Below, in pieces: positions 1 to 64,000 of a stretch of 64,000 bases of DNA (position 1 is the first letter of the stretch; every line of letters begins with the position of its first letter). The position numbers and the translations under genes are program-made. Origin of the DNA: a virus; IMG/VR virus record IMGVR_UViG_3300023184_005116, positions 38,758-102,757 of that record; one strand, 5' to 3'. The notes beneath the pieces are model-generated. The model had not been told where the DNA came from. It searched no databases and was given only the letters and a program-made list of their open reading frames with translations.

Positions 1-73
1 AGCTATACTAAGACATCGCTTGTATCTCCTGCTTATTCCCAAACTGTAATAACCACTAAGAAATAATTGAAAA

Positions 74-3000
74 TTGGCAAGAAAGATAATTAAACAGACG
101 GCATCGTTTGGAGTACTCAGAGCGAATCCTAGAATATCAGGTAATGTTAAACTTACCATTGATGCTAATAAGGATATCTGGTTAAACTCCATTGACTCTA
201 ATGCCGAGATGTCAAACCAGGCTTATAAGGGATTTAGAATTTCGCCCGAATCTTCTTTTGATAGGGATTTGTATACTTTTTTTAACGAAGGTAAAACGCC
301 TCCTCAGTTTGTTTTTGGATTAGCAGGGGAAGGAGAGCCAGTACAAAACCAGATTAATAATTTAGCAAATTCCTACAACTTTATTTACAGTTCGGGGGTA
401 ACCCCTCTAGTATCTGATAAGTATTCTGAAGATTTTTCTTATCTTGCACCTTTGTGGATGGGAGAGGATATACCTGACTATTTTGTAATATTTAGGGTAA
501 ATGATCCTATAGATTACCCATACCAAGTTCCTGTTACTTCTATATCTAACGGAGCTAGTTATAAAGTTCTAGAAGACCCTAATGTAGACAAAAATGCTAC
601 TGGGTATTTACCATTTATTGTATCGTATAACGCATCCAATTACACAGACGGGAATATCTTTAGCGGAGGAGCTTTAGTCTCGTTTACCGTTGTTCAAGGA
701 AGTGGTACAGTGATTCTTTTAGATCCTTTGTATCATCAAAGTGATGTCGAAAATACTTCTTCTCATTTTTATAATAAGATTTTACCAAAAGCTACTGCAG
801 TATCAACATTTGATCTCACTGAAAAATCAAAAATAGGAAAATATCTAAGAAAAATTAAAACGACTACTGGATACACAGATAGTCTTATTGATGTTAGATT
901 TGAAGAGAATCAATTAACCAATTACAACGGTGTTAATTATACTAGAGGCGTATTTGACAAAAAAGGAGATTTTCTTTTAGATTATTTTGAAACCCCAACT
1001 TCACAAATAGGGTTTGAAGATTATATGACCGATGGTTTTAGAAGAAATGGATTAATTAGCTATAAGCTTCTTAATTTAGAATTTCTTTTTAATGACGGTG
1101 AATCTAAAAATTATACAATAAATAGATATTTTGGTCTATATGTAAATGCTGCAGAAGTATCTTCATTAAAGCTAGACGGAAATGCTTTGTATTACGATGG
1201 CGGCGCATCGGGAAATACCCCAGTACCTCAAAGAAATGATAAAGGATATTATTATCAGGAAGGAGCATATTATCAATACAACGATAATGGAGTAAGGCTA
1301 TTTATAGACCCTATTCAAATAAAAGGGGTAATTCCAACTTCAGATGATGTAAATGAATATGAGCGAACAAAACTTTTCTGGATAAAAGATAAAGTTGGTA
1401 GTTTTTATTCTTTAAAAAAAGACGAAAACTATCTTACTGCAATAGAGATATTACCTACATCTTTATACGGATTACCTGGTACTGAAAATCAATTAGTATT
1501 GCAAAATACTGTTGTTAATCTTTCCAATTTTACTGGATCTGATGTAAACACCAAAAAACAATATTATGGTAAATCAACAGGAGAAAAAGGAAGAGCATAT
1601 TCTGTTATAAAAATAGGGGGACAACTTACAAACACAAGCGAGGATTCATTTGTATTCTATCATCCTTTAGGAACTTATGGAGTACCTGGAGCTAAGTATG
1701 ACATTTTAAGAAGCTCTGATATGTCATCTGTAATTGATGAATGGGGTCCAGGAAGTTATTACTCACAAGACAATGCTTATTATTTTCACCCTTTTGGAAC
1801 TCCTGAACAAATTGCTACTGCAATAGCTGGACTTTTTAATAGCTTTAATTATAATTCTTTTGAAGCTTTTGTCTCTGGTGATGAAGTAGTAATAAGAACA
1901 AGAGCAGCAGGTTCACAAGAAAATACAAAATACTATATAGATTTCTATCAGGACTTTTCATTACTTGTAAGAATGCCTGATTTGAGAAGAGGCACTATTC
2001 TAATTAACGAAAAAGATGCTTGTGATATAAATCAGAAGCAGTCGTTTGTCGGAGGGTCTAACTATTCTACAAATAGAGTTAAGGTTAAGAAGGAGGATGC
2101 TAATAAAATTATAGTAGGCGAAACCTTTATTGAAACAGTTAAAAATACTGCAACTGATTCTTTTAGTGGAATACCCGAATATTCACACAAAAGTTCTTCT
2201 GTAGTTGTTGGGAAATATAGATTCGTAGATGAATATGCTAAGGACCTTGGCGGGGAAATAATAGGATTAAAAGATTTTGAAAATTATGCAACCTTAGAAG
2301 TTGCAAACCATACAGAAAAAATATCAATCGGATCTGTAAATAAAATATCTGCTTTTGATACCTACGATGTACCATTGGGAATATTTTCTTTTTATGGATT
2401 AAGAGAAATCGATATGGATTTCTGGTATAGTAATTATGGATATACCCCTACAGAAGAATACTATAAATATTTAGACGTTCAGCCGGACGGAAATACTAAA
2501 ATAATTCCAAACAGAACTTATTTTGTTTCTTCAGGAAGCGAAATAATATACAATTCTAATAATGTTACGGGACCAGATTTTTTCGTTGGTAATCTTGGTG
2601 TAGAATCCTATACATTAGTTACAGCATCTACTGGTGCAGAGGCTAATGTTTATCCCACTATATTTTCGAGAGGAAACCAGACAGGAACAGTAAATACAAT
2701 AAATTTTGATACTGCATTTTACCCGGATCTTGATGCCTTCCCTGGATTTTATGGAATACAGGATCTTAAATTTTTTAACGAGCAGACAGGATTAGATACT
2801 AAATATTCTAATTTGAATTTTGGTAAACTTTCATCTGAATATGATTATACAAAAGATAACTATAATACGGATTTTGCAATAAATAGTAGAGTAAGTCCTT
2901 ATATAACTAAATGGGTTTATAAAGGAGGAACTGATGTAAGAGGAAATGGATATAGATTAAATAATAATCTTGCATTTAGCCCGCTTAATTTTTCTCCTAG

Positions 3001-5725: not shown

Positions 5726-8506
5726 ATGCCACAGATTAACATATTAAACGTACTCCAAGGAGATAACCAGTCAACTATAGTTGACAAGCTAAATTATAAC
5801 TTCGATCAGATTTTAAGTGCTGGTGGAGGACCTCAAGGTCAACAAGGATTTATTGGTCCAACTGGTCCAATAGGTCCACAAGGACCTCAAGGTGTACAAG
5901 GTATACAAGGACCTTCGGGGACTAAATGGTTTGTACAAGATACCTCTCCTGCTTCTGGAGCAATAACAGGAAGCAGCCCGTGGAATTATCCTGCAATTGG
6001 TGACTATTGGTTAGATCCGGATTCAGCAAATCAAGAGATCTATGTATTTACGGCAACAGGTTGGGTAGACAGCGGATATGGATTAGCAGCGGGAGATATA
6101 TTTCAAAGATTTACCCCTATTTCTCTAAATGGAGGAGCTACAGGAAAAGGTATATTTATAGCAGGAACTGCTTCTGATAATAGCGTTATATTATCAGATG
6201 CTTCTATTGCAGATTATACTCCAGGAGCTAGTGCTATAGGTAATACTAACTATGAAAATTCCAAACTTAAAATTGCTACAGATTTAACAAGACAAAAGCT
6301 TATAAGCTTTGGTAGATCTAATTACGATACAACATCAGAAACTGGATCTGCTAGTAGTTTAAAAAATCCTTCAATTCAATGGACTTCTGTTGCTCCTTCA
6401 GGTACAGGAGATTATGATATTACATTTACTAACCCTGCAGGAAGTATTAATATTTCTTCTAATATGGGTGGTGGATCTGGAGGTATTAATATGTATTCTC
6501 AAGAAGAAATTACCGCAGAATCTGCTACTCAAAATATTCAATTAAAAACTGCTTCAGTTGGTAAAGGTGTTTTTACAGATGTTGCTACTGGTGGTGCTGG
6601 ATTCTTTGAAGTATCAAATTTAGGCGGTAGCACAGTTAATCAAAACTACCCCCATTTCTATAGCGATAGTGTAGGTGCAGGTATCGGTGTAGGTACTGGA
6701 CAATTTAAAAGTACAGGAAATGATGCAAGAAAGCTTTCGGTTTTAGGTAACGTAAGTATATCAAAAACAGTAGGAAAGCATACAGGAACTTTATTTACAG
6801 GGAGTTCTTTACTTCCTGCTAATAATAATAAAGGTAGTTTATACGTAGAAGGATTTGTTGGGATAGGAACTACTGATCCTACTGCATATAACGGTTCAAC
6901 AATACCTCTTAACACTACAGGACCAGCAGAAGCTCAAGGAGCTTTTCCTCAGCTTTGGGTTAGTTCTCCTAACTACGGTCCTGGATTACAAGTTAAAACA
7001 AGACCTTCGTCATCAACGGGAGCACTTTCGCCTCCTAATGTAGCATCTATAGGAAGAACAGTTATTGGGGATGGGGTATTTGATGCTGCTGCAGTTTCTA
7101 GTTCTTTTGATAAAATAAGCGGAACTGGTCCTGATTTTTCTCAGGAACTTTTCTTAAATTCTGGGTATCTATTTGGAGCAAGAGCAGCTTTAATTAGCTA
7201 TCAACAAAAGATTTCAAATTCTTTAAATACAACAGGAAATGCTCCAGTATTTGCAATAACTACTTATAGTCCAACTAGTGTTGGGCCATACTCTCCTGGT
7301 ATAACATCGGGACTAGTTACAACAATACAAGTTAGAAATTCCAATAACCAGTTAGATATAATGTCTAACGGAACTGGAAGTGCTTCACTTAACAATGTTA
7401 ATATTGGAGCTAGAAATAGTTATTTGTTAAACGTAAAAGCAGGAACTACTACTGATCCTGGATATGGTAATATTAAAATAGGAAATAATGCAGGGACAAA
7501 TAATGGAGTCGTTGGTTCATTGCCAGGAAATATTAATTTTTACTCTCCAGGAAGCGATGGACCATACAGAAATCATAGTTTAACTGTTTCAGGAATACAA
7601 ACAATAGGTACTGAGGATCCTTTGTCTAGCTTTTCAGTTTCGAGCAGTTCCACAGGAGCAGGCGTTTCGAATTATACAAACTTAAAGATTCACAGAAATC
7701 TTTATAGTGGAGTCCATTATGCTGCTGGAGGACATCCTGATCCGTTTAGTTATTTTACAGGACCGAAGGTAAATAATTATCCGAACGGAATAGAAATAAC
7801 ATCAGACATAGGAGATGACTCTGGTACTTCCTTTATTAAGGGATTAAACAGGTCTGTTGCTATAGCAGTTTCTGCTAGGAATTTGTTCGAGTCTCGGCCT
7901 ATTCCTTTTGGTAAAGGTACTGCATTAGCTGCTCCTACTAATGGATTCTTTGTCAGCGATACTGGACATAACGTTTCTATTGGTGGATTACCACTATATG
8001 GAGGTGCAGCATTAGATGTTAGTGCATCTCCAGGAGGTAATGCTGTTGCAATAAATACTCAAGGTGATTTATCAGTTGTAGGTAATACTGACATTTTGGG
8101 AAATCTTGGGGTTACAGGAGACGTATCTATTCTTAATGGAGGATTAATTATTCTTAGAAATAGCGTACAGTTTCCACACCCTTTTGTCCCTTTAACTTCT
8201 TCCACTGATTGGTTCTTAAGTCCAACAAACGAGCAAAGTGCTCCTTATGATTGGCCTGCTGTAAATTACGATAGGTATATTACTGTACAAGCAGGTAGCT
8301 CTGGTTCAGGGAATGCTAGATATGAATGCTATGCTGAAAATAATATAGGATCAGGATCCTATTATCTCCCTGAAAGAAGGGTTATGGATGCTTATAGCTC
8401 TGTGTCATTTTTAGTAGCAGCTGGATGTAGATTTAGGGTTGTAATAGCAAATACAAGTGGTTTTCAATCGTATATAAGTATTATATCTAAAAAATTCGGT
8501 AGATAA
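5726..8506 (+). CDS. Tail fibre-like protein with short collagen repeat
   Basis: GPQGQQG...GPSG collagen triplets near the N-terminus, VGIGTTDP-type motifs, Gly/Ser/Thr-rich; GATATATA motif upstream. Confidence 0.65.
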   Translation: MPQINILNVLQGDNQSTIVDKLNYNFDQILSAGGGPQGQQGFIGPTGPIGPQGPQGVQGIQGPSGTKWFVQDTSPASGAITGSSPWNYPAIGDYWLDPDSANQEIYVFTATGWVDSGYGLAAGDIFQRFTPISLNGGATGKGIFIAGTASDNSVILSDASIADYTPGASAIGNTNYENSKLKIATDLTRQKLISFGRSNYDTTSETGSASSLKNPSIQWTSVAPSGTGDYDITFTNPAGSINISSNMGGGSGGINMYSQEEITAESATQNIQLKTASVGKGVFTDVATGGAGFFEVSNLGGSTVNQNYPHFYSDSVGAGIGVGTGQFKSTGNDARKLSVLGNVSISKTVGKHTGTLFTGSSLLPANNNKGSLYVEGFVGIGTTDPTAYNGSTIPLNTTGPAEAQGAFPQLWVSSPNYGPGLQVKTRPSSSTGALSPPNVASIGRTVIGDGVFDAAAVSSSFDKISGTGPDFSQELFLNSGYLFGARAALISYQQKISNSLNTTGNAPVFAITTYSPTSVGPYSPGITSGLVTTIQVRNSNNQLDIMSNGTGSASLNNVNIGARNSYLLNVKAGTTTDPGYGNIKIGNNAGTNNGVVGSLPGNINFYSPGSDGPYRNHSLTVSGIQTIGTEDPLSSFSVSSSSTGAGVSNYTNLKIHRNLYSGVHYAAGGHPDPFSYFTGPKVNNYPNGIEITSDIGDDSGTSFIKGLNRSVAIAVSARNLFESRPIPFGKGTALAAPTNGFFVSDTGHNVSIGGLPLYGGAALDVSASPGGNAVAINTQGDLSVVGNTDILGNLGVTGDVSILNGGLIILRNSVQFPHPFVPLTSSTDWFLSPTNEQSAPYDWPAVNYDRYITVQAGSSGSGNARYECYAENNIGSGSYYLPERRVMDAYSSVSFLVAAGCRFRVVIANTSGFQSYISIISKKFGR

Positions 8507-8712
8507 TGACTAAAGAATGGTTTATACAAAAATATGGGGAAACCCACGATAATCTTTCTAGATTAGAAAAAGAAATAGAAGGGCATCAAAATAATAAAGA
8601 TCTTATCTCTAATGATCCTGTAATATTGGAAAATTTAAAAAAAGAGACTCTATTAGAAATACAAAAATTAAATAATCTTCGAGAATATGAACGAAAAATT
8701 TTCAATTACTAA
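8506..8712 (+). CDS. Hypothetical coiled-coil protein
   Basis: 68 aa, translationally coupled (TAATG) to the upstream gene. Confidence 0.5.
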   Translation: MTKEWFIQKYGETHDNLSRLEKEIEGHQNNKDLISNDPVILENLKKETLLEIQKLNNLREYERKIFNY

Positions 8713-9484
8713 TATCCTAAAAAGAAAGGATATTCTCCTTCTTGTTGTAGTTGGTATACTTTGCATGTTGCTATTTAGACAGTGCTCTAGCACGTCAAAT
8801 CTTCAAGCCCAATTAGAGATACAGAATCTTAATTTGGATGCTTTAAATGACACTGTACGAGTTCAAAAGAACAAGGCTGGTGAGGACATGTTTGTTAAAA
8901 AGACATTACTTGCAGATAAAGAAAGTCTAGAGAAATTAAATTCAGATTTAGCTGTTGAATTGAAAAAAGTAAAAGGGCAAGTAATTGCTTTACAAAAAGT
9001 TAAAGCAGAAACTAAAACCGAAATTCAATATGTGCCTACATATGTTACTAAATACAACGACGGGAAATATAGTTTAGATTGGAAATTAGACACAACATAT
9101 TCGGAAGGAAATTATAGAAAGCTTTCTGCTAATAGCTATTTTGAGATTGATACATTAACGCATATTATAAAACCTGGTAAAACTAAAATAGGAGAAGACG
9201 TTTTAGGATTTTCGTTTGTTACCGGACTTAGGGAAAAAGATAATGCACTAGAGATCTTTGTAACTCCAAAATATCCTGGTATGACTATTACTAGCATGGA
9301 AGGAGCAATAATTGATCCTCAAAAATCAGATGTGTTAAAGAAAATGTTTCCTCAGAAAAAATGGTCAATTGGTCCTTTTGTAGGAGTGGGAATTGGAGCG
9401 GGAGTTAACTTTATAGGAAAGCCTATAGCTGGACCTGTATTTGTATTAGGGCTTGGTATTCAATATTCCATAATTAAATTCTAA
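8687..9484 (+). CDS. Membrane-anchored coiled-coil protein (possibly spanin-like)
   Basis: N-terminal hydrophobic helix ILLLVVVGILCMLLF, coiled coil, C-terminal beta-strand-like GVGIGAG...GIQYSIIKF. Confidence 0.45.
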   Translation: MNEKFSITNILKRKDILLLVVVGILCMLLFRQCSSTSNLQAQLEIQNLNLDALNDTVRVQKNKAGEDMFVKKTLLADKESLEKLNSDLAVELKKVKGQVIALQKVKAETKTEIQYVPTYVTKYNDGKYSLDWKLDTTYSEGNYRKLSANSYFEIDTLTHIIKPGKTKIGEDVLGFSFVTGLREKDNALEIFVTPKYPGMTITSMEGAIIDPQKSDVLKKMFPQKKWSIGPFVGVGIGAGVNFIGKPIAGPVFVLGLGIQYSIIKF

Positions 9485-9511
9485 GGAGAAATTAAAAGGA
9501 ATATATAACTC

Positions 9512-11857
9512 ATGCCTAATTACACATCAACACAGAGATTTGTTAAGCTTACTGATTATTTGCTGCTAGAATATGATTATACTACAGCACCAAATCCGGA
9601 GGAGTACTTTGTAAACACAGGTCTTCCCGCAGTAGGATTTGAAAAAATTGTAAATGGATATTTTGACAATTCAGTACAGATCTTAAATAAGCCTGCAGAT
9701 CAGGCTACCACTACCAATGTAAGGGATCTTAGTGTTGTTCAAACGGCAAAAAATAGATTCGTTACGTTAGATATGGATTATCTAACTCAGTATCTAGATT
9801 ATGATCCAAAATTAACACCCGTTAGTGGTCTTCCTATAGTATTCCCTTCTAATATTGGAGTTTATTATGACACTATAAAATTTCATATAGTATCAGGATA
9901 CAATTTTGATAATATTGATGGTGTAATTTTACAGATAAGATTTCAAGAAAGAACTGGAAAGAAAGCAACAATATTACAACTTCTTGTTACAAAATCTGAT
10001 GTAGCTCTTCCTATTCTAAATCCTAATCCTATTTATTTAGGTGGAGCTTTATATGATCATTATGTGGAAGTTAAGATACCTGCTTATGCAAATATGATTG
10101 CTCAATTTGAGATTTTAAATGGGCAACCTGCACAAACATATACATTAGGTGCTAAAATTTCATCAGATGGAAATGGATTTTTAAAAGATGCTCCTGTTGA
10201 ATTTACTTTATACGAGATAACACAAACTGTTCTTAAAGACGGATATCAAAACTACATAGCTCAGGTTAGAGCTCAATTAGGTGTTTTTCCTAGAGACAAT
10301 TATTCTAATCTAGCCGCAGTAATCCAGCAGAATTCTTTTTATAACTATCTTGAATATTATCCAACATGGGAAGGTAACTTCTTAGAAGATTTTATAAATG
10401 CAGAAGGTACAGTTGGTGTTTCTTATTATGTTATACACGAATTAGAAGTTAAAGAACAAGTTGGTCTAAGCTATATAACAACATATAATTTTTCAACGAC
10501 ACAAACTCAAGATTATAACTCTCCCTATATTTTTAGACCCGTTTTAGTTAACCCTTTAACTACATCTTTCATAGTAAACTATACTATGAGATTAGTTAAT
10601 AAAACTAATCAGAATCAGATTATAAGAAGATCGTCATTTAGTTCTTTAGATGTAACTAAATACGGAAGAGAGGTTAACAAGATAAATTTAACTACAGGAG
10701 CTTATTCTCAGAAGGTATACAATAAAGTTATACAAGCTGCTAATATATTATCACCTGTTGGTGTAAGTCCTACTCTTGGTGCTCCTATAGAGAAAAAAAT
10801 ACCGGTTTTCTATAAAGATAATAGTATTTCCGTCACGCAAGAAAATATCGTTATTGGTAAAGATGGGAATTTAGTTTCTGAAACATCAAGTCCAACTGCA
10901 AATACTGCTTATGGTCAAGGAAAAGCTAAAATTCTTGTCGATCCATTTGATAACTTTTACAAGTTTACAGTTTATAATCTTAAAGGAACTACAACTCCTG
11001 AGATTATGGATCTAGGCACTTCACTAACTTATTATATTGTTTTCTTAGATAAAACTGGACAAAGCGTAAGAGTTGAAAATATTAAAAATAAAACTTCAAT
11101 ATCAAATCCTTCTACTGGACAGGTAGCTTTTAAAGTTGTTGATACTAACTCAAAAAAAATCTTAGGGTTTACTTCTAGAGAATTTTATATAATTTCTAGA
11201 ACACCAGATGCGGTAGAAACTAAACTTTATTCAGGAACTTGGCAAAATCAATCCGAATTTACTGCTGGTCTTTCTTCTCAAGCTTCTTCGACAGGACCAA
11301 CAAAAGGTGTTACCGGAACTGCAACCACAACTACAACAACAGTTTCTACAACAGCATCAGAAGGAGCAACGAGAGCTTTAACAACAGCTGGAAATCAGAT
11401 TGTAAATGAAGTTCCACAAACAACAGTAACAAAACCTAGTAGACCTTATGTTTTAGGAAGTAGCTCAGTACTTAGTGTTAAGCCTACTTCTCTTTTAAAT
11501 ACAACCGGGGGATTTTCTACTGGTAAAACATCAGCAACTAAGGTTCCTTTACAAAGTTCAGTACAAGCAAATCTTATAAATATAAACGCATTAGCTGATT
11601 CTATAGCAGGAAAAGAATCACAAGGATCTAATCCTCAAAGTGTTATTAATTATTATTTTACACCTGGATCACCTGGTGCTACTCTATTTAAAGGAATAAA
11701 ACCAAGTCAGTTCTTAACTGCTGCTTACCAGATACATCCTAAAACGTCTAATGGTAACTATGATCCTAAGTATATACAATATTGTAATGCTTTAGATTTT
11801 CCAGTAACTAGCGATCCTGAAGGAGCTACAAAAAAAGGATCTACAAATAAAAAATAA
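9512..11857 (+). CDS. Virion structural protein (putative)
   Basis: 781 aa with a Thr/Ser-rich linker; GAATATATA motif upstream; structural cluster. Confidence 0.5.
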   Translation: MPNYTSTQRFVKLTDYLLLEYDYTTAPNPEEYFVNTGLPAVGFEKIVNGYFDNSVQILNKPADQATTTNVRDLSVVQTAKNRFVTLDMDYLTQYLDYDPKLTPVSGLPIVFPSNIGVYYDTIKFHIVSGYNFDNIDGVILQIRFQERTGKKATILQLLVTKSDVALPILNPNPIYLGGALYDHYVEVKIPAYANMIAQFEILNGQPAQTYTLGAKISSDGNGFLKDAPVEFTLYEITQTVLKDGYQNYIAQVRAQLGVFPRDNYSNLAAVIQQNSFYNYLEYYPTWEGNFLEDFINAEGTVGVSYYVIHELEVKEQVGLSYITTYNFSTTQTQDYNSPYIFRPVLVNPLTTSFIVNYTMRLVNKTNQNQIIRRSSFSSLDVTKYGREVNKINLTTGAYSQKVYNKVIQAANILSPVGVSPTLGAPIEKKIPVFYKDNSISVTQENIVIGKDGNLVSETSSPTANTAYGQGKAKILVDPFDNFYKFTVYNLKGTTTPEIMDLGTSLTYYIVFLDKTGQSVRVENIKNKTSISNPSTGQVAFKVVDTNSKKILGFTSREFYIISRTPDAVETKLYSGTWQNQSEFTAGLSSQASSTGPTKGVTGTATTTTTTVSTTASEGATRALTTAGNQIVNEVPQTTVTKPSRPYVLGSSSVLSVKPTSLLNTTGGFSTGKTSATKVPLQSSVQANLININALADSIAGKESQGSNPQSVINYYFTPGSPGATLFKGIKPSQFLTAAYQIHPKTSNGNYDPKYIQYCNALDFPVTSDPEGATKKGSTNKK

Positions 11858-11860
11858 TAG

Positions 11861-12412
11861 ATGATTTTAAACGCCAGGCAAAATGGTTTTATATTTAATT
11901 TTCCTAAGGGGTTTATTGTAGATGCTGTTGTTGAAAAATACCAGGGGTACATTAAAAGAATGCCTATTCCTTATGATACTGTTAATGATTTTATAAACGC
12001 AACTATACAATCTGTAAACTTCCCAACGCTTAGAGCTGTTGATAACGTAGAACAGATTAGACCAGGCGGATTCAAACAATCTTACAAAAGTGCAACCACT
12101 TTGCAAAATTTGGTTCAAAGAGAATTTACTGTTACATTTAAACTTGGAGAAGGATTTATTAATTATTGGGTAATTTACGAGAACATTATTAAGTTTTTGG
12201 ATTTTAATAATCCAGAGCAATATCTTCCAGACTTTAGACTTTTATTATTGGATAATGATGGTATTATTATGGCCAGCATTCTTCTTCAACAACCTATTGT
12301 GACGTCACTTTCCGAAATACAGTTGAACTACTCTTCAACTACCCCGCAGTTTAGCACTTTCTCTGTTGGGTTCAAATGTAATTACGTAGATGTCAAATTG
12401 GAAATCGGATAA
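11861..12412 (+). CDS. Tail tube/tail-completion family protein (T4 gp3/gp19-like)
   Basis: IQSVNFP...FTVTFKLGEGFINYW...LSEIQLNY...FSVGF pattern typical of the tail-tube fold. Confidence 0.55.
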   Translation: MILNARQNGFIFNFPKGFIVDAVVEKYQGYIKRMPIPYDTVNDFINATIQSVNFPTLRAVDNVEQIRPGGFKQSYKSATTLQNLVQREFTVTFKLGEGFINYWVIYENIIKFLDFNNPEQYLPDFRLLLLDNDGIIMASILLQQPIVTSLSEIQLNYSSTTPQFSTFSVGFKCNYVDVKLEIG

Positions 12413-13088
12413 AAAAATAATTGGTATAGACTTTAGCTTAAACTCTCCAGGGTTTGCAATCCTAACTCAATATAATTGTAAATGGATAAGTCTCCACAGA
12501 ACCACTAACAACATACCAAAGATGCTAGAAAAGGACGGATCACCGTTCAAAGTATTTAATGGTATCTCTGAATTCTCTATTAATATAGTTGAGAAAAAAG
12601 AATTTAAAGGGGAATACCACGAAAAGGAAAGAGAAAAAATCCTTAATGCAATTTATTTCTCAGAAAAAGTTTTGGAATTACTAGAACCTTATCTTGATGG
12701 GGGAACCTCCGTAGCAATGGAAGGGCTTTCGTTTGGATCTAGTGGAAATTCTTTAATTGATATTTCTATGACTACTGCTTTAGTTAGAGCAGGCGTTGTT
12801 AAAAAAATCGATCCTAATAATTTCTTTGTAATATCTCCAACAACTTTAAAGAAATTTGCAGTAAAGGGAAATGCAAAAAAAGACGAGCTCTACCATACAA
12901 TATTAGAAAAGAAAAGATTTGATGTTAGACTTAAACCATTAATGGATGTATTAGAAAAAAATAAAGGTACTTGGATTAAAGGAGTTGGAAAAGTAGAAAA
13001 TCCTTGTTCTGATATAATTGATGCTACTTGGTTAGCTTTATTTATTGAAGAAAATGAAGAGAAACTTTTGAAAGGCTCCACTGTATAA
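12390..13088 (+). CDS. RuvC-like Holliday junction resolvase
   Basis: IIGIDFSLNSPG, MEGLSFGS, SPTTLKKF..GNAKKD and DIIDA acidic motifs. Confidence 0.8.
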   Translation: MSNWKSDKKIIGIDFSLNSPGFAILTQYNCKWISLHRTTNNIPKMLEKDGSPFKVFNGISEFSINIVEKKEFKGEYHEKEREKILNAIYFSEKVLELLEPYLDGGTSVAMEGLSFGSSGNSLIDISMTTALVRAGVVKKIDPNNFFVISPTTLKKFAVKGNAKKDELYHTILEKKRFDVRLKPLMDVLEKNKGTWIKGVGKVENPCSDIIDATWLALFIEENEEKLLKGSTV

Positions 13089-13137
13089 ATAAAGATTAAG
13101 TTCATTAAAAAAACAATTAAAAAAAATTTGAAAAATT

Positions 13138-14094
13138 ATGGAAGACAATTTTGACATTTTCAACCTGGACAATGAGGCATTTGTAAAACAGGAAGTTAAG
13201 AGAGATGAGGACGAGTTTATCTACAAACCGTATCCTGAATTAGGAAAAGACGGTGTGTATAAATCTTTAATCCGATTCTTACCTAACATCACAAACCCTA
13301 AAAAATCTAAAATCCACCAATACTACGTGTGGTTAAAAGATCCTGTAGACGGAGCAAACTTTAAAGCTCTTTGTCCTTCTACAGTAGGAAAAAAATCAAT
13401 TTTAAAAGACATTTACTGGAAGCTTAAAAATTCTGCTTCTGCTAAAGATCAAGAGATTTCTAAAGCTTTCTCAAGAAAAGAAGATTTCTATTCTTTGATT
13501 CAAGTAGTAAAAGATCCAAACAAGCCAGAGCTTGAAGGTAAAATCATGATCTTGAAATTCGGTAGAAAAGTAAACGATCTTATCGAGCAACAAATTAAAC
13601 CTGAATTTGGTAATCCGTCAAATCCTTATGATTTATTCGAAGGTAAAAGTTTTGGATTACAGGTAAGAAAGGTTGGTGAATGGAACAACTACGATCTTTG
13701 TCAATTCGTTGGAGATAAAGGACCGGTTATGGTTAATGGATCTGCAGTTGAAAAAACAGAGGAAAGCAGAGACGCAATCACTAAATATTTAAAATCCGGT
13801 CCATTGGATCTTGATAAATATGATTACAAAGATTGGACAGAAGACGAAACTGAGAAGATCATGAAGATCATTAGAAACACTATTCCTGACGGAAGAATGA
13901 TTTCTGAAATCGTTTCAGGAAACTCTGATTCTAAATCTGCTACATCAGCACCTTCAAACAATGTTGATAGTTTCTTCGAGGATGCTAATTCTCGTACTAC
14001 AACACAATCTGAAGAGCCAGATCAGGAATCAAAACCAGCTAAGTCAAGTGGTAAAGCCGCTCCTTCTCTAGACGATTTATATAACGATTTATAA
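13138..14094 (+). CDS. Single-stranded DNA-binding protein (T4 gp32-like)
   Basis: IRFLP motif, VVKDPNKPELEGKIMILKFGRK, NPYDLFEG, acidic C-terminal tail LDDLYNDL. Confidence 0.9.
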   Translation: MEDNFDIFNLDNEAFVKQEVKRDEDEFIYKPYPELGKDGVYKSLIRFLPNITNPKKSKIHQYYVWLKDPVDGANFKALCPSTVGKKSILKDIYWKLKNSASAKDQEISKAFSRKEDFYSLIQVVKDPNKPELEGKIMILKFGRKVNDLIEQQIKPEFGNPSNPYDLFEGKSFGLQVRKVGEWNNYDLCQFVGDKGPVMVNGSAVEKTEESRDAITKYLKSGPLDLDKYDYKDWTEDETEKIMKIIRNTIPDGRMISEIVSGNSDSKSATSAPSNNVDSFFEDANSRTTTQSEEPDQESKPAKSSGKAAPSLDDLYNDL

Positions 14095-14114
14095 TAATCT
14101 AAATATGGATCGTA

Positions 14115-15185
14115 ATGGAAACAAAGGAAGCAAGTGGTCTTACAGTAGACCGAGTTAAAGGGATAGTACAAGCATCTCTTCTTAAATTCTTCGGAAACGA
14201 TCCGCATCGTCTTAAGATATACCAAGGGGGCAACAGATTAAATTTCTGTTGCCCCTATTGTGGTGATTCTAGGGATCCTAAAAAGAAAAGAGGGAATCTA
14301 TACTTAGATACACTAACTTATAAATGTTATAACGGAGGTTGCGGGGTATTTAAGAATCTGAACCAATTAACAAGGGATTTCGATATACAGACAATGCTTA
14401 GTTCTGATGAGATCTCGGAAATAACTGAATTATCAAGAAGCTCTGTAGCAAGAAAGAAAATCCGTAATTCTATTGATTATTTCTTTTCCGAAAATTACAA
14501 AGACATTCTAATACCTAGAGATGAGCTAAAAGCTAAACTAGGACTTTGGGAGGTTAAAGGAACTTTTGCAGAAAAATGGATTCTTGATAGAAACCATACA
14601 CCTGATAGTAAATTTTTATGGGATCCAAAAAGAAGAAATCTATATCTTTTAAATCTTTCAGGAGACGAGACTAAGGTTATTGGTTTACAAATGAGGCCAA
14701 TAGTTAAAAAGGGACATAGCAAATATTTTACATATAAGCTTAGCGGTATTTATAAAAATCTTATGGGAATAAAAGATCCTGAGATTATTTTAAAAGCCGA
14801 AGAGGTTGATCCAATATCTAGTGTATTTGGATTTGCAACTGTGGACTTAGATGCTATGATTACAACTTTTGAAGGACCATTGGATGCTTGGCTTTGTCCA
14901 AATTCAATTGCACTTTGTTCTATTAATAACCCTTTCCCTTTTGATGTATTAAATAAGAGGTGGTTCTTAGACGGAGATAAACCAGGAAGAGATAAATCAA
15001 GAAATCTTTTAGAAGATGGTGAAAATGTATTTCTTTGGGGAAAATTTTTAAAAGAAAATGATTTTCCTGATAGGGAAAAATGGGATCTTAATGATGTTGT
15101 AAATTATCTTAGATCAACAGGAAAAAAAATCAAAAGGCTCGATAATTATTTTTCCACTGATAAATGGGATATTATAGATATATGA
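14115..15185 (+). CDS. DNA primase (T4 gp61-like)
   Basis: NFCCPYCGDS...KRG...YKCYNGGC zinc finger; TOPRIM motifs FEGPLD, LDGD, WDLND. Confidence 0.9.
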   Translation: METKEASGLTVDRVKGIVQASLLKFFGNDPHRLKIYQGGNRLNFCCPYCGDSRDPKKKRGNLYLDTLTYKCYNGGCGVFKNLNQLTRDFDIQTMLSSDEISEITELSRSSVARKKIRNSIDYFFSENYKDILIPRDELKAKLGLWEVKGTFAEKWILDRNHTPDSKFLWDPKRRNLYLLNLSGDETKVIGLQMRPIVKKGHSKYFTYKLSGIYKNLMGIKDPEIILKAEEVDPISSVFGFATVDLDAMITTFEGPLDAWLCPNSIALCSINNPFPFDVLNKRWFLDGDKPGRDKSRNLLEDGENVFLWGKFLKENDFPDREKWDLNDVVNYLRSTGKKIKRLDNYFSTDKWDIIDI

Positions 15186-15382
15186 AAAAATCTAGAGCTA
15201 AAAATAATAATGGTAAATATAAGTTTCCTGTAGATATAAAAGGGGACTTTGAATTACCTGATTTTGATCTGTCTTCTAATTATGAGAACAGCAAGGTAAA
15301 GAATAAAATAAGCTCTGAAATAAAAGAGGTTATTACAGTAAAAAATAAAAAGAAAAAATGTCAGAGCAACAAGCTAATATAG
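15182..15382 (+). CDS. Hypothetical basic protein
   Basis: Short Lys-rich ORF between primase and UvsY; ATG at 15182 overlaps the primase stop. Confidence 0.4.
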   Translation: MKKSRAKNNNGKYKFPVDIKGDFELPDFDLSSNYENSKVKNKISSEIKEVITVKNKKKKCQSNKLI

Positions 15383-15828
15383 AGGGTAAAATAGATTTTG
15401 ATAAAAAATTTGGCGAAGAAAGATCTGAGTGGACTGAAAAAATTAGATCACTTGCTATTCGTATGAAAAACATTAGAGAGCTTGCTGAAGTACAGGTCGA
15501 TTTATATTCAAATAGACAGATCATATTAGAATATAATGCTAAACTTGGACAAGTTATGACTAAGCTTAATGCTAAATTCAGAAAAGATAAAGCAGATCGT
15601 TTAAAGTATTACTCTGAAAATAGCCAGGTGAAATACGGAGCAAATGAAAAGAATCCATTGATAGAGGGGGATCTTAGTGAGTTAAAAGAAAGAATGGAAA
15701 TAGTAGAAACACAGATTTCTTTTCTAAATGAAACTATGAAAACTGTAGACCACATGCTTTATGGGGTCCGTTCAAGAATATCTCTTGAAGAGTATATGAG
15801 ATCGGGAGCGGTCAAAAATAATTATTAA
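15358..15828 (+). CDS. uvsY: Recombination mediator UvsY-like
   Basis: Helical 156 aa protein directly upstream of UvsW; YYS...IEGD...ISFLNETMK pattern. Confidence 0.65.
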   Translation: MSEQQANIEGKIDFDKKFGEERSEWTEKIRSLAIRMKNIRELAEVQVDLYSNRQIILEYNAKLGQVMTKLNAKFRKDKADRLKYYSENSQVKYGANEKNPLIEGDLSELKERMEIVETQISFLNETMKTVDHMLYGVRSRISLEEYMRSGAVKNNY

Positions 15829-59872: not shown

Positions 59873-59997
59873 TAACGATACTCAGATATATTCAGTTGTT
59901 TATTAAATAATAAAAAATATGATTACAGAAGAAAAATACTTAAAAGCATTACAGGTTGTTAAAGACTATGAAAAACAATTGAATATATCTGTTGTTA
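59873..59997 (-). repeat. attC-like site, long class (125 bp)
   Basis: TAAC gatact CAGATATATTCAGTTGTTT ... AAACAATTGAATATATCTG tt GTTA. Confidence 0.8.
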
Positions 59998-60098
59998 GAT
60001 GTAGTTGCGAACCAGTAAAAACTAAAGATGAAAATGGTAATGGATTATTTGTGAGTCCTTGGTGTTGGAAGTGCAACACTTGGTGCAATTACATCTAA
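59919..60098 (+). CDS. Cassette protein, Cys-rich; not in ORF track
   Basis: Manual translation, 59 aa MITEEKYLKALQVVKDYEKQLNISVVRCSCEPVKTKDENGNGLFVSPWCWKCNTWCNYI; stop is the TAA of the next TAAC. Confidence 0.65.
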   Translation: MITEEKYLKALQVVKDYEKQLNISVVRCSCEPVKTKDENGNGLFVSPWCWKCNTWCNYI

Positions 60099-60217
60099 CG
60101 TATAGATGCAAAAGCAGTTTAATTTTAATTATATGACAAAGAAACAAAAAGTAGAAGAAGCTATCAAAGAAGCAGAAAAGGAATTAGAACGCCTTAAATT
60201 GCTTTTACATAGTGTTA
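60096..60217 (-). repeat. attC-like site, long class (122 bp)
   Basis: TAAC gtatag ATGCAAAAGCAGTTTAA ... TTAAATTGCTTTTACAT agt GTTA. Confidence 0.8.
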
Positions 60218-60306
60218 GTGGCAGTGCTTTAGAAGTATGCCCCTATTGTAAAACTAAAAATAGACATTGGTATGCAAAAGATTATTGGTGCTGTTCGTTT
60301 TGTTAG
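60133..60306 (+). CDS. Cassette protein with Zn-ribbon-like C-terminus
   Basis: MTKKQKVEE...HSVSGSALEVCPYC...CCSFC; starts inside the attC loop. Confidence 0.6.
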   Translation: MTKKQKVEEAIKEAEKELERLKLLLHSVSGSALEVCPYCKTKNRHWYAKDYWCCSFC

Positions 60307-60315
60307 CATTGCCAC

Positions 60316-60432
60316 TAACGGTTGGGTGTATATGTAGTGATTTACACTGAACTTTATTAGAAGAAATGAATATAATTATTAACAGACAAGGTTGATTAGA
60401 TGTAGTAAAATCATTACATATACACCCTGTTA
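60316..60432 (-). repeat. attC-like site (117 bp)
   Basis: TAAC ggtt GGGTGTATATGTAGTGATTT ... AAATCATTACATATACACCC t GTTA. Confidence 0.85.
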
Positions 60433-60464
60433 TAAGTAGTAAAACAAAAATAAACTAAACAGAT

Positions 60465-60758
60465 ATGGAAACCTTTAGAGAAAAACAAGAAAAATTTGAT
60501 AAATTAATTTCAGAACTTAATTCTGATTTTATTTGTGGTGCAGCAGTTGGAACAAAAGTAAAAGATAGTTCTTTGTATATAGCGGAAGAGTCAACAAAAA
60601 TTTATGGTACTGAAAAATACAAAATAGGAACATTTAACCAAAAAAGTGTAATTATTGACCCACATATTAAATGGGGAGATATGAGAATTTTTGATGAATC
60701 TGGAACGGAATTAATTAATTTATCAAATTTTGGATTTGATATAATGGATATGATTTAA
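60465..60758 (+). CDS. Cassette hypothetical protein
   Basis: 97 aa ORF filling one cassette. Confidence 0.6.
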   Translation: METFREKQEKFDKLISELNSDFICGAAVGTKVKDSSLYIAEESTKIYGTEKYKIGTFNQKSVIIDPHIKWGDMRIFDESGTELINLSNFGFDIMDMI

Positions 60759-60829
60759 TTTTTGTTTTATTTCATTTATACTTTGTTATGTTTAACGAAG
60801 TGTAGTTGTGAGGAACGAACAATTAAACA

Positions 60830-60877
60830 TAACGGATGAGTGTAAAAAATCGTTTTAATGTTTTTTACACTTTGTTA
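60830..60877 (-). repeat. attC-like site, short class (48 bp)
   Basis: TAAC ggatg AGTGTAAAAAA tcgttttaatg TTTTTTACACT tt GTTA. Confidence 0.85.
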
Positions 60878-60905
60878 TAAGTATGTAAAACAAAAATTAT
60901 ACAAT

Positions 60906-61067
60906 ATGAAAGTAAAAATAATAAAAGAACACAATGGAATACCAGAGGGTTCAGTGATACATGTGGAAAAAGAATTGAAAAACGATTACAAAGGAATTTG
61001 GTCAAGTATGATGGGTTCTTATACAGTTAAGGTAAAGAAGAAATATTGTGAAATTAAAAACTCATAA
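60906..61067 (+). CDS. Cassette hypothetical protein
   Basis: 53 aa from ATG 60906. Confidence 0.55.
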   Translation: MKVKIIKEHNGIPEGSVIHVEKELKNDYKGIWSSMMGSYTVKVKKKYCEIKNS

Positions 61068-61085
61068 TTTTTGTTTTATTACTTA

Positions 61086-61211
61086 TAACGTATGGCAGCT
61101 AAACGCTGTTGGAGATTTGAAACACTAAATTATAAACTTAAAATAAAATTAATATGAAAAACAAAACTTCAAACTTAGACAAAACCGCCAATAGCGATTT
61201 AGGTGTTGTTA
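61086..61211 (-). repeat. attC-like site, long class (126 bp)
   Basis: TAACG...CTAAACGCTGTTGG ... CCAATAGCGATTTAG...TGTTA. Confidence 0.75.
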
Positions 61212-61384
61212 GCGGTAGTTTAACTCATATTCCACTATTTCAGTATATTGCTGCGGTGGAAGCACATAAGAACACGTTAGATTTACTTGCAATAGTACAA
61301 AATGACAAAAAGGAATTGAAATTAGATTTAGAAGCAGCATATAAAGAAATTGACCGATTGAACGTCAAACTAAATTACCGCTAA
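61154..61384 (+). CDS. Cassette coiled-coil protein
   Basis: Starts inside the attC loop and reads GVVSGS across the core; stop is the TAA of TAAC. Confidence 0.6.
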   Translation: MKNKTSNLDKTANSDLGVVSGSLTHIPLFQYIAAVEAHKNTLDLLAIVQNDKKELKLDLEAAYKEIDRLNVKLNYR

Positions 61385-61429
61385 CGTCCCATGATAAACA
61401 ATCGTTTTAATGTTGTTTATCATTTGTTA
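61382..61429 (-). repeat. attC-like site, short class (48 bp)
   Basis: TAAC gtccc ATGATAAACAA tcgttttaatg TTGTTTATCAT tt GTTA. Confidence 0.85.
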
Positions 61430-61472
61430 GGTTTTGTCATTAATTTGTTTTACCTTTGTAAAAATTAAAAAT

Positions 61473-61691
61473 ATGGAAAATAAAAACACAAACGAAGAAC
61501 TTGAGTATTTTCAAAATAAACTCAAGGAAACTATGGGTAAAGGATTACCTAAAAAATATCTTGAAACAACTGACTTGGGTGAAGTCGATAAGGAATATAA
61601 ACATAGATTCAAAGAACGAATTGAAAAACACTTAACAGAAGTTGATAGAATTAAAAATATGATAGGCGATTCAAAACAAATTAATGATTGA
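61473..61691 (+). CDS. Cassette hypothetical protein
   Basis: 72 aa from ATG 61473; TACCTTTG at 61451 matches the Bacteroidota -7 element. Confidence 0.55.
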   Translation: MENKNTNEELEYFQNKLKETMGKGLPKKYLETTDLGEVDKEYKHRFKERIEKHLTEVDRIKNMIGDSKQIND

Positions 61692-61694
61692 ACC

Positions 61695-61781
61695 TAACGG
61701 TTGGGTATATACGAAGTACCCATATCACGAACTTTAAATTTAGTACAAACCTTAATGGGGTATTTCGTATATACCTTGTTA
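61695..61781 (-). repeat. attC-like site, medium class (87 bp)
   Basis: TAAC ggttg GGTATATACGAAGTACC ... GGTATTTCGTATATACC tt GTTA. Confidence 0.85.
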
Positions 61782-61796
61782 TAAACTGTAAAAATT

Positions 61797-61985
61797 ATGG
61801 ATTTAACACACGAACAAAAATTAGAAAAGAAACAAATAGTTAGAGATGAACTGAAAGGGAAGATAAAACATCTTTATATGTCATTTCTAAGTGAAATGGA
61901 AACACAATATCCACCTTGGTTAAATAAAGATGATGTTATTAATGTTTTGTCTTCCCTGATATTAGATGAGACGAAACTTAAATAA
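61797..61985 (+). CDS. Cassette hypothetical protein
   Basis: 62 aa ORF filling one cassette. Confidence 0.55.
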   Translation: MDLTHEQKLEKKQIVRDELKGKIKHLYMSFLSEMETQYPPWLNKDDVINVLSSLILDETKLK

Positions 61986-61998
61986 TTTTTATTGTTTA

Positions 61999-62046
61999 TA
62001 ACGATTGCAAATAAAACATCGTTTTAATGTGTTTTATTTGTTGTTA
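61999..62046 (-). repeat. attC-like site, short class (48 bp)
   Basis: TAAC gattg CAAATAAAACA tcgttttaatg TGTTTTATTTG tt GTTA. Confidence 0.85.
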
Positions 62047-62083
62047 TGTTTTAGTTTTAAAAATTTTATACAAATAAAAAAAT

Positions 62084-62329
62084 ATGAAATACGAAAGAGA
62101 ATACCAAGTGTTTGCAAAAGAAATAACCGATAAGTTTATATCAATGGTTACTGGTGAATTACCAACGCAATGTTTTTGTGGAGAAATGTCTGATGGGCCA
62201 AGTAGAATACCAACAGAAGAAGAGCAACGAGAATTTTTTAAAGAAAATAACAAATATGCGTTGGAGTGGTTGAACAAAAATATGGTGACTTATGACGAGT
62301 GGATTGCGAAGCATAAAACAAATTCATAA
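62084..62329 (+). CDS. Cassette hypothetical protein
   Basis: 81 aa ORF filling one cassette. Confidence 0.6.
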   Translation: MKYEREYQVFAKEITDKFISMVTGELPTQCFCGEMSDGPSRIPTEEEQREFFKENNKYALEWLNKNMVTYDEWIAKHKTNS

Positions 62330-62347
62330 AATTTTTAAAATTAAACA

Positions 62348-62434
62348 TAACGGTTGGGTATTGGCGAAGTGCCACCAGTACAAACTTAAATTCAAGGCAC
62401 AAACTATCTGTGGCATTTTGCCAATACTGTGTTA
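62348..62434 (-). repeat. attC-like site, medium class (87 bp)
   Basis: TAAC ggttgg GTATTGGCGAAGTGCCAC ... GTGGCATTTTGCCAATAC tgt GTTA. Confidence 0.85.
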
Positions 62435-62480
62435 TAGGTAGTTGTTTTAAAAATTAGCGTTGGCATTAAATGGTTTAAAT

Positions 62481-62762
62481 ATGAAAATTCCAAATACAAC
62501 AGACGAAAAACCTTATATTGAATTTAGAATTGATAAAAAAGGTAAAATTAAATTATCAGCTACATCAAATTGGTGGGGAGGAAAAAATGCTGGTTTCTCA
62601 TCTTCTGATGGAACGGAAGGTAATACTTGCGAACCAAAGCATTTAAAAGCATACATTAAAGCATTTAAAGAGAAAAAGATTAAGAATATTGAGAAAGAAA
62701 TTTTAGCATTACAAAAGCAATTAGAAGTTGTTGAATCTGAAACCGAGCGTTGGGATTTTTAA
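62481..62762 (+). CDS. Cassette hypothetical protein
   Basis: 93 aa from ATG 62481 (alternative GTG 62460). Confidence 0.6.
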   Translation: MKIPNTTDEKPYIEFRIDKKGKIKLSATSNWWGGKNAGFSSSDGTEGNTCEPKHLKAYIKAFKEKKIKNIEKEILALQKQLEVVESETERWDF

Positions 62763-62774
62763 AACAATTACCTA

Positions 62775-62900
62775 TAACGTTTTGCGGCTAACAGAAGTTG
62801 GCGATTACGAAGCACAAATTTTCAATTATAAAAAAAATTAAATACAAAGCAATGAACTACAATAAACCACAAAGCCGCCAATTTTTGTTAGGTGCTGTTA
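62775..62900 (-). repeat. attC-like site, long class (126 bp)
   Basis: TAACG...CTAACAGAAGTTGGCG ... CGCCAATTTTTGTTAG...TGTTA. Confidence 0.8.
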
Positions 62901-63091
62901 TAGGTAGTATTTTGAGGTTGGGTTTCAAGATTATTAATTGCAATCACTTTAAAATGAAAGCACATAACGGTAAACCTTATTATAAAAGTATTGTAAAAAT
63001 TAAGGGATTTAGAACTGCTGTCGTTGACAGATATGATGGAAATAGAAGTACAAATAGGTTTTATTGGCGTGTCGGCAAATATTACCTATAA
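62852..63091 (+). CDS. Cassette basic protein
   Basis: MNYNKPQSRQFLLGAVIGS...; starts inside the attC loop; stop is the TAA of TAAC. Confidence 0.6.
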   Translation: MNYNKPQSRQFLLGAVIGSILRLGFKIINCNHFKMKAHNGKPYYKSIVKIKGFRTAVVDRYDGNRSTNRFYWRVGKYYL

Positions 63092-63136
63092 CGGTTGATG
63101 ATAAACAATCGTTTTAATGTTGTTTATCATTTGTTA
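63089..63136 (-). repeat. attC-like site, short class (48 bp)
   Basis: TAAC ggttg ATGATAAACAA tcgttttaatg TTGTTTATCAT tt GTTA. Confidence 0.85.
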
Positions 63137-63179
63137 TAAGTATGTATTATTTTTGTTTTACCTATTAAAAAATTAAATT

Positions 63180-63395
63180 ATGACACAAGAAAAACTAATT
63201 GAAATTTGGGACACTATACCAAATAAACATAAAAATTATAGTGGGGTTGAGGTAGTTGGTGAAATTGAAATTATGGGATATTTCACGAGAAAAGAATTAG
63301 ATGTTGCTGAGAAAAAAGGTTGGTTGTATAATAATCATGCTGAGTATGATATGGGAGAACCATCTTATAATTTAATAAACTCAAAACAAAAATAA
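63180..63395 (+). CDS. Cassette hypothetical protein
   Basis: 71 aa ORF filling one cassette. Confidence 0.6.
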   Translation: MTQEKLIEIWDTIPNKHKNYSGVEVVGEIEIMGYFTRKELDVAEKKGWLYNNHAEYDMGEPSYNLINSKQK

Positions 63396-63404
63396 TATTA
63401 CTTA

Positions 63405-63491
63405 TAACGGCTGGGTATATGTGAAGTACCTTACCACAGAACTTAATAATTTAGTAGAAACATTATAAGGTATTTCACATATACCTTGTTA
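63405..63491 (-). repeat. attC-like site, medium class (87 bp)
   Basis: TAAC ggctg GGTATATGTGAAGTACCTTA ... TAAGGTATTTCACATATACC tt GTTA. Confidence 0.85.
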
Positions 63492-63507
63492 TAAAACGTT
63501 TTATTTT

Positions 63508-63723
63508 ATGGAAAATAATATTGAAAAATGGATGAAAGAGTGGGTTGATAGAACATCAAAAGTTAAATATGAAAACTCTTTCAATGAGAAGAGTGATGAA
63601 TGGATTGAGATTGAAGGTATTGGTAGATTTAAAGGACTTGAGATTGTCTCAGAAGAACATCAAGATATAAATGAGATAACAATCAATCTCAAATATGATG
63701 TGTGGGATAAAAATGTTTTATAA
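63508..63723 (+). CDS. Cassette hypothetical protein (integrase-proximal cassette)
   Basis: 71 aa; stop is the TAA of the terminal TAAC. Confidence 0.6.
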   Translation: MENNIEKWMKEWVDRTSKVKYENSFNEKSDEWIEIEGIGRFKGLEIVSEEHQDINEITINLKYDVWDKNVL

Positions 63724-63745
63724 CTATATTATATATGCAACTCTA
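63718..63745 (-). other. Candidate attI-like site
   Basis: The last TAAC is followed by T rather than G and by no hairpin; minus strand reads GAGTTGCATATATAATATAG|TTATAA; lies between array and integrase. Confidence 0.55.
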
Positions 63746-63776: not shown

Positions 63777-64000
63777 ATGAAAAAGACCGACTATTACAAG
63801 ATTTGCGAACAAAAATTGAAGTACTTGAATTATTCGGACAGAACGGTTGAGTGTTATCTTTCCTATATAAATCAGTTTTTGGATAGAATAGAAATTCCAC
63901 CTACTCGGCTAGGTTCACAAGACTTTCAATCCTATTTGGACAACTATAAATTCACTTCGGTTTCTCAACAGAATCAAGTAATATATGCAATCAGATTTCT
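63777..64000 (+). CDS. intI: Integron-integrase-like tyrosine recombinase, N-terminal SAM-like domain (truncated by window end; not in ORF track)
   Basis: Manual translation MKKTDYYKICEQKLKYLNYSDRTVECYLSYINQFLDRIEIPPTRLGSQDFQSYLDNYKFTSVSQQNQVIYAIRF matches the IntI/Xer N-terminal pattern YSxRTxxxY..P..L....S.SxxNQ...A..F; catalytic domain not visible. Confidence 0.75.
   Translation, partial: MKKTDYYKICEQKLKYLNYSDRTVECYLSYINQFLDRIEIPPTRLGSQDFQSYLDNYKFTSVSQQNQVIYAIRF

Follow-up and report, generated by a model that had tools for sequence, protein, structure and literature searches.

The last 64 kb of a 102.7-kb viral contig (IMG/VR record IMGVR_UViG_3300023184_005116, positions 38,758 to 102,757) carry, at 59873-63724 on the + strand, an array of hairpin sites and small genes that ends beside the gene of a tyrosine recombinase; this whole stretch of 64,000 nucleotides (nt) is called the window here, and positions given without a locus name are counted from its first letter. 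The array is probably a cassette platform of integron-like design, carried by a phage and operated by a short tyrosine recombinase of Xer type, its unit being a hairpin followed by the gene downstream of it. The contig was judged to be about one third complete, and a helicase, a DNA polymerase, a ribonucleotide reductase and a topoisomerase II of phage type are encoded in the window.

The array contains 12 sites of the form TAAC-spacer-stem-loop-stem-spacer-GTTA, starting at 59873, 60096, 60316, 60830, 61086, 61382, 61695, 61999, 62348, 62775, 63089 and 63405, with 12 small + strand open reading frames (ORFs) between them and a closing TAAC that has no hairpin. The coordinates of the sites, the placement of all 12 cassette genes on the + strand and the right end of the array, formed by the hairpin-less TAAC (63721-63724) and the recombinase start (63777), agree with a first-pass annotation made from the letters of the sequence. 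Its observation that genes end at or near the crossover TAAC is also borne out: the stop codon is the TAA of TAAC itself in cassettes 1, 5, 10 and 12, and lies 4-19 nt ahead of TAAC in six further cassettes (2, 6, 7, 8, 9 and 11). Imperfect inverted repeats with a conserved AAC...GTT, an unpaired central spacer and a variable terminal loop, as in the sites of integrons, are found in these 12 sites and in 179 sites of relatives. Three classes can be distinguished in the window: four sites of 48 nt with the common loop TCGTTTTAATG, four of 87-117 nt with related stems, and four of 122-126 nt whose loop contains the start codon of the next ORF. The 11-nt loop of the first class is identical at 60830-60877, 61382-61429, 61999-62046 and 63089-63136 and is also found in many related phages; its preservation over differing stems suggests that the loop itself may be recognised.

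Relatives were collected with the 74-residue recombinase fragment encoded in the window as query, which gave 50 related viral loci, several of them on contigs of 250-360 kb; individual loci are cited below by L numbers. A strand-symmetric detector found 179 unique sites in about 43 related loci. In this family the arrays lie upstream of the recombinase gene, on the same strand, and hardly ever downstream, with up to 14 sites per locus on the upstream side and 0-2 on the other over similar lengths of DNA. Without exception, in 50 or more viral loci, the array adjoins one and the same side of the recombinase gene; the longest ORF is on the + strand, pointing toward the docking site beside that gene, in 154 of 157 units.

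Since the sites are near-palindromic, a hairpin can be assigned to a gene only by comparison. Cassette content is very diverse, and several cassettes recur at different places. A terminal copy in L015 and an internal copy in L026 have 97.5% identity from TAAC through the upstream hairpin, GTTA, the leader and the gene to the next TAAC; outside this unit the two loci are unrelated on both sides, and beyond the last TAAC there is the docking site in L015 and another hairpin in L026. The boundaries are the same for L027 and L049, and L003 and L153 are 100% identical over 508 nt, from TAAC to TAAC. Three window cassettes were also used as queries against viral contigs: close copies were found for two of them, and none in these contigs for the third. 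Cassette 3 of the window matches L159 from the TAAC at 60316 onward, upstream hairpin included; the unit of L159 ends with ...TTACTTATAAC and a new hairpin, and the window has a collapsed site at the same place. The segment shared by cassette 8 and L136 (pair A7, 99% identical at the amino acid level) extends from GTTA to TAAC, and that shared by cassette 9 and L134 (94%) ends at TAAC. Eight pairs were aligned. In each of them, sequence similarity downstream of the gene breaks off at TAAC, and the next hairpin is a different one; among high-scoring segment pairs of at least 170 nt, the right-hand boundary coincides with TAAC in 10 pairs and in none with the distal end of the downstream hairpin. 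The first-pass annotation had proposed that the array is read in reverse and had named strain comparison as a test that could refute this. The proposal withstood it: terminal and internal copies match from TAAC to TAAC, and none of the eight pairs has the downstream hairpin in common. These boundaries support an orientation in which each gene travels with the hairpin in front of it and lies on the + strand, the better-folding one.

The boundaries at TAAC, together with a pairing of the flanks across the gene, support a mobile unit composed of a hairpin and its downstream gene, whose ends would form an extended duplex only in the circle. In 352 cassettes, the stretch of 11 bases that follows GTTA pairs with the equally long one ahead of the next TAAC; the median perfect run is 5 for flanks of the same cassette versus 1 for flanks of the same site, and position 7 of this outer duplex is T.G in 248 of the 352. 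The comparisons place the crossover no more finely than within (TA)TAAC(G).

The sites are asymmetric, as the first reading had pointed out. The unpaired spacer measures 4-6 nt on the left (TAAC) side and 1-3 nt on the right (GTTA) side in all 12 window sites, and the left spacer is the longer one in 165 of 175 family sites. Stem irregularities in the window are mostly G.T wobbles on the + strand (about 15, versus three other mismatches: A.A, C.A and G.G), and the family has 280 G.T pairs on + versus 102 on -. A comparison of the folding energies of the two strands, called for in the same annotation, favours the + strand. When the sites are folded within the array with DNA parameters, its advantage is 1-5 kcal/mol in the eight sites that have long loops (87-126 nt), and both strands are about equally stable in the four 48-nt sites; when each site is folded with the flanks of its own cassette, as at a circle junction, the more stable strand is + for 11 of the 12, with a sum of -230 versus -186 kcal/mol. 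Among the family sites it is the better-folding strand in 143, versus 26. Regular bulged (extrahelical) bases were not found in the sites, which have instead spacers of 5 versus 2 nt, the fixed T.G and some G.G mismatches or single bulges.

On the side of the recombinase, all arrays close with a TAAC that has no hairpin. In the window this attI-like docking site (63721-63745, + strand) consists of the TAAC followed by TATATTATATAT, and its TAAC is 56 nt ahead of the recombinase ATG; its consensus in the family, TAAC-TA-t-n-a-TATAT, lies some 55 nt upstream of the ATG. The closely related phages L014 and L015 have identical docking sites, and their sequences differ only to the left of the terminal TAAC. 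A docking site by the integrase gene, which is what attI is in integrons, is indicated by the terminal and internal copies of the same cassette, both of which break at the hairpin-less TAAC.

The recombinase gene of the window (63777-64000, + strand) runs off the contig after 74 codons, so that the nature of the enzyme is taken from its relatives. Full-length relatives have 266 amino acids and contain PF13495 and PF00589. Their best model is the XerA-type NF040815, below its cut-off, which ranks ahead of XerC/XerD and of the integron integrase model TIGR02249 (146-164 bits, cut-off 265). They are colinear with Pyrococcus abyssi XerA (4a8e; E 3e-40), with the motifs GLRVSE, HQLRHS, GHS and IYTHV; a SAM-like N-terminal domain and a catalytic domain with R..HxxR..H..Y, colinear with XerA, XerC and XerD, identify them as Xer-type enzymes. 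Conversely, the alignment with VchIntIA (2a3v) consists of two blocks, where residues 173-213 face chain residues 176-264, and about 48 residues are missing at the IntI-specific domain. The definition of integrons requires an integrase with this additional domain, of about 35 residues near patch III (Cury et al. 2016, PMC4889954), and tyrosine recombinases without it near attC sites have been dismissed as not IntI (PMC4889954). Judged from the sequences of the 266-residue relatives, which lack the domain, the recombinase is not an IntI and the array is not an integron by definition; the terms attC and integrase are only analogies here.

In L012, L040 and L041 the recombinase genes have early stops (at 143 or 131 codons) beside otherwise normal arrays. 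Among cultured phages, the closest recombinases are only 33-39% identical (Polaribacter phages Freya and Leef, Cellulophaga phage Ingeline). Between Freya strains, the region immediately upstream of the 39%-identical integrase differs by as much as about 4 kb of small genes (L053, Freya_10, 1-4150); TAAC-hairpin-GTTA sites were not obvious in the Freya intergenic regions read upstream of this integrase.

Bacterial loci encoding relatives of the enzyme have another gene orientation. A relaxed AAC...GTT scan of 62 of them was noisy, and only arrays read by eye were used. In L086 (a contig of a Pseudomonadales metagenome-assembled genome, 2000-8850) the recombinase has 280 amino acids, is 40% identical and lacks the IntI insert; sites, hairpin-less TAAC and recombinase are laid out as in the phage arrays, with the same spacer geometry, but the genes are on the opposite strand, directed away from the docking site and each with its site behind it, which is the classical layout. 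In L078 (Ignavibacteria, 7962-15800) the recombinase gene lies ahead of cassette genes of the same direction; the sites stand behind the genes and have mirrored spacers (1 versus 5), and the non-coding strand folds better in three of four sites. Read by eye alone, the first ORF after this recombinase (8946-9545) resembles a protein for the transport or binding of mercury; it is followed, ahead of the first site, by a small CxxC ORF (9542-9748). Cleavage by IntI in classical integrons takes place in the 5' AAC of the folded bottom strand, the one with the lower folding energy (PMC5027507). The arrangement of integrons, where an ORF is followed by its own attC, the coding strand is opposite to the recombined one and genes are read from the Pc promoter at attI, is not that of the phage arrays. 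The position of the genes on the other strand in L086 and L078, together with that of the phage ORFs on the folding strand, supports the view that the phage arrays are reversed relative both to their own bacterial relatives and to classical integrons.

On the + strand, the unit would read C-(5-nt spacer)-hairpin-(2-nt spacer)-GTTA-flank-gene-flank'-TAA, with the crossover within the TAAC at the 5' side of each hairpin, and new units would be inserted at the TAAC without hairpin that directly precedes the recombinase gene. After excision as a circle, the flanks of the unit would pair with each other and lengthen the TAAC/GTTA duplex to about 15 base pairs, with the conserved T.G wobble. The + strand may be recombined as folded single-stranded DNA, like the attC bottom strand in integrons, with a predicted cleavage TAA|C; the 5-versus-2 internal loop could set the polarity in place of extrahelical bases, which IntI reads by means of the domain that this enzyme lacks. 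Use of a single strand by the recombinase is supported only indirectly, by the strand-biased wobbles and the folding energies. The case is about evenly balanced that a Xer-like lineage without the IntI domain runs a true single-strand, hairpin-based cassette capture in large Bacteroidota phages, with the coding strand flipped onto the recombined strand. If so, each cassette would bring its own upstream hairpin, sometimes with a start codon inside, and the array would be expressed within a phage transcription unit and not from a platform promoter. Transcription would come from upstream phage promoters or from within the cassettes, because a promoter at the docking site could not read these genes.

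The same unit and gene orientation would be obtained if no strand were folded and the enzyme performed a Xer-type recombination of double-stranded DNA, with the left half of every site as its duplex target (flank'-TAA | C + 5 nt + stem start), the inverted repeat serving another purpose or being a by-product. This mechanism would suit an enzyme that is Xer-like and has no IntI insertion, as well as a docking site that has only the left half and shares the TAAC and a nearby TATAT-like element with the hairpin sites. However, stems of very different sequence stay paired in the 179 sites, although a duplex site would not need pairing, and both the wobble bias on one strand and the flank pairing across the gene with its fixed T.G would be needless; recombination on duplex DNA is regarded as unlikely.

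Less probable still is a role of the hairpins in RNA, for transcript stability, processing or translation control, with the neighbouring recombinase unrelated and the cassettes shuffled by homologous recombination. Shuffling of this kind, between repeats, has been proposed for the promoter-stem-loop repeats of T4-type phages, in which a stem-loop joined to an early promoter lies between small genes. G.U pairs are tolerated in RNA, the favoured strand is the coding one, some ORFs start inside loops, one hairpin (in L136) is a chimera joined in the conserved loop, and some shared segments start at ATG (A2, A6). Conversely, a pairing of flanks across whole genes has no obvious role in RNA, breakpoints are sharp at TAAC, even where this has no hairpin (L015/L026, L027/L049), the constant side of the array relative to the recombinase gene would be unexplained, and the sites of the bacterial relatives L086 and L078 are on the non-coding strand. 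Scans for signals also came out negative: sigma-70-like promoters show no excess (31 found versus 33.6 expected, with a tool that does not cover Bacteroidota-type promoters), the terminator scan found no terminators at the sites, and an Rfam scan of the array gave nothing even at E up to 1.

Finally, a unit of classical polarity, made of a gene and its downstream hairpin with the crossover at G|TTA of the + strand, would fit the coding-strand order gene-TAAC-hairpin-GTTA, which resembles a normal cassette, and the one shared segment that begins at GTTA (A7), but it was rejected on the boundary evidence as very improbable, since the downstream hairpin is common to none of the eight pairs and does not exist behind terminal cassettes, several ORFs have their start codon within the loop of the upstream hairpin, and the distal end of the array opens with a full hairpin.

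Some findings weigh against the favoured platform of hairpin-first units captured by the recombinase. The G.T bias would suit a + strand RNA hairpin equally well. Some shared segments begin not at TAAC but at GTTA (A7), at ATG (A2, A6) or inside an ORF (A1), which suggests that other exchange processes also act and could blur the boundaries. Hairpin families recur within and between arrays, and a hairpin of L136 (1410-1470) is a chimera of two 48-nt variants, with the left arm of one and the right arm of the other joined in the loop TCGTTTTAATG, and cannot fold; both observations point to homologous exchange between repeated hairpins, and this or a fusion of neighbouring cassettes probably acts as well. 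Moreover, the enzyme lacks a domain held necessary for the recombination of attC by IntI, and only 74 codons of the window gene are present, a stretch over which the relatives are 53-81% identical.

From left to right, all on the + strand, cassette 1 (59876-60098) has its site at 59873-59997, with a loop of about 70 nt that holds the ATG, and its ORF at 59919-60098. Cassette 2 (60099-60318; site 60096-60217) has an ORF, 60133-60306, that starts inside the loop. Cassette 3 (60319-60832; site 60316-60432) contains the ORF 60465-60758; behind it, the collapsed site at 60772-60789 (TTATAC-TTT-GTTAT) has lost its hairpin and is followed by a 46-nt mini-cassette without ORF (60785-60833), which ends with the TAAC at 60830 and recurs in L003 (7137-7186) and L032. 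Cassette 4 (60833-61088) combines the 48-nt site 60830-60877 with the ORF 60906-61067, and cassette 5 (61089-61384) the site 61086-61211, with ATG in the loop, and the ORF 61154-61384. Cassettes 6 (61385-61697; site 61382-61429, 48 nt), 7 (61698-62001; site 61695-61781), 8 (62002-62350; site 61999-62046, 48 nt) and 9 (62351-62777; site 62348-62434) carry the ORFs 61473-61691, 61797-61985, 62084-62329 and 62481-62762, respectively. In cassette 10 (62778-63091) the loop of the site 62775-62900 again contains the ATG of the ORF, 62852-63091; cassette 11 (63092-63407) has the 48-nt site 63089-63136 and the ORF 63180-63395. Cassette 12 (63408-63723; site 63405-63491, ORF 63508-63723) adjoins the docking site, and its stop is the TAA of the terminal TAAC. 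Leaders are short, with a median of 44 nt from GTTA to ATG. Pfam and PHROGs searches of the cassette proteins gave nothing meaningful; three window cassette genes that have homologues stay open, with substitutions mostly at third codon positions, which supports coding on the + strand. A loop motif, GAAACAC...AACTTAAAT, was considered as a phage promoter and discarded, as it is not enriched elsewhere in the window.

In integrons, IntI needs its extra domain to read folded attC sites, and strand choice places promoterless genes the right way round behind Pc. The phage arrays seem to depart from both rules together, and to do so in hundreds of cassettes. In the literature, no paper was found that describes a reversed orientation of cassettes or a cassette platform of phages with its own Xer-like recombinase. 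Bacterial relatives of the same enzyme keep the classical orientation, which gives a natural pair of systems for asking what sets polarity without a reader of extrahelical bases and how cassettes are expressed without a platform promoter. The arrays would also represent a large reservoir of small accessory genes that phages exchange singly.

Compared with known systems, the phage arrays share with integrons a recombinase gene by a docking site, a row of single-gene units, imperfect inverted repeats with AAC/GTT cores, an unpaired central spacer, a variable loop, complementary unit ends, one better-folding strand and diverse unannotated cassettes. They differ in the recombinase, which at 266 amino acids is about 48 residues short of VchIntIA at the IntI-specific domain, in genes that lie on the better-folding strand and point to the docking site and recombinase, with the hairpin ahead of the gene, in a central spacer of 5 versus 2 nt, in the lack of evident classical extrahelical bases and in the host, a large phage. 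The 'inverted integrase' integrons of the Treponema and Chlorobi type, which L078 resembles, also have recombinase and cassette genes on the same strand; however, their integrase is upstream and their cassettes run away from attI, each gene followed by its attC, while the phage array is upstream and its genes run toward the recombinase. Integration of CTX phage by XerCD is a case of Xer-type enzymes acting on a folded single strand, in which a whole genome enters dif by means of host enzymes. The likeness lies in the enzyme type and the folded-hairpin site and, if cleavage is at TAA|C, would extend to a cleaved strand with a 6-nt central stretch; here, the phage enzyme would instead move many small cassettes. 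Finally, clusters of attC sites lacking integrases (CALINs) have been described in virulent phages, including those of Flavobacteriia, and assayed with IntI1 (Qi et al. 2023, PMC9892861); these too are rows of attC-like sites in phages, but the arrays described here always have a docking site and a Xer-like recombinase of their own next to them.

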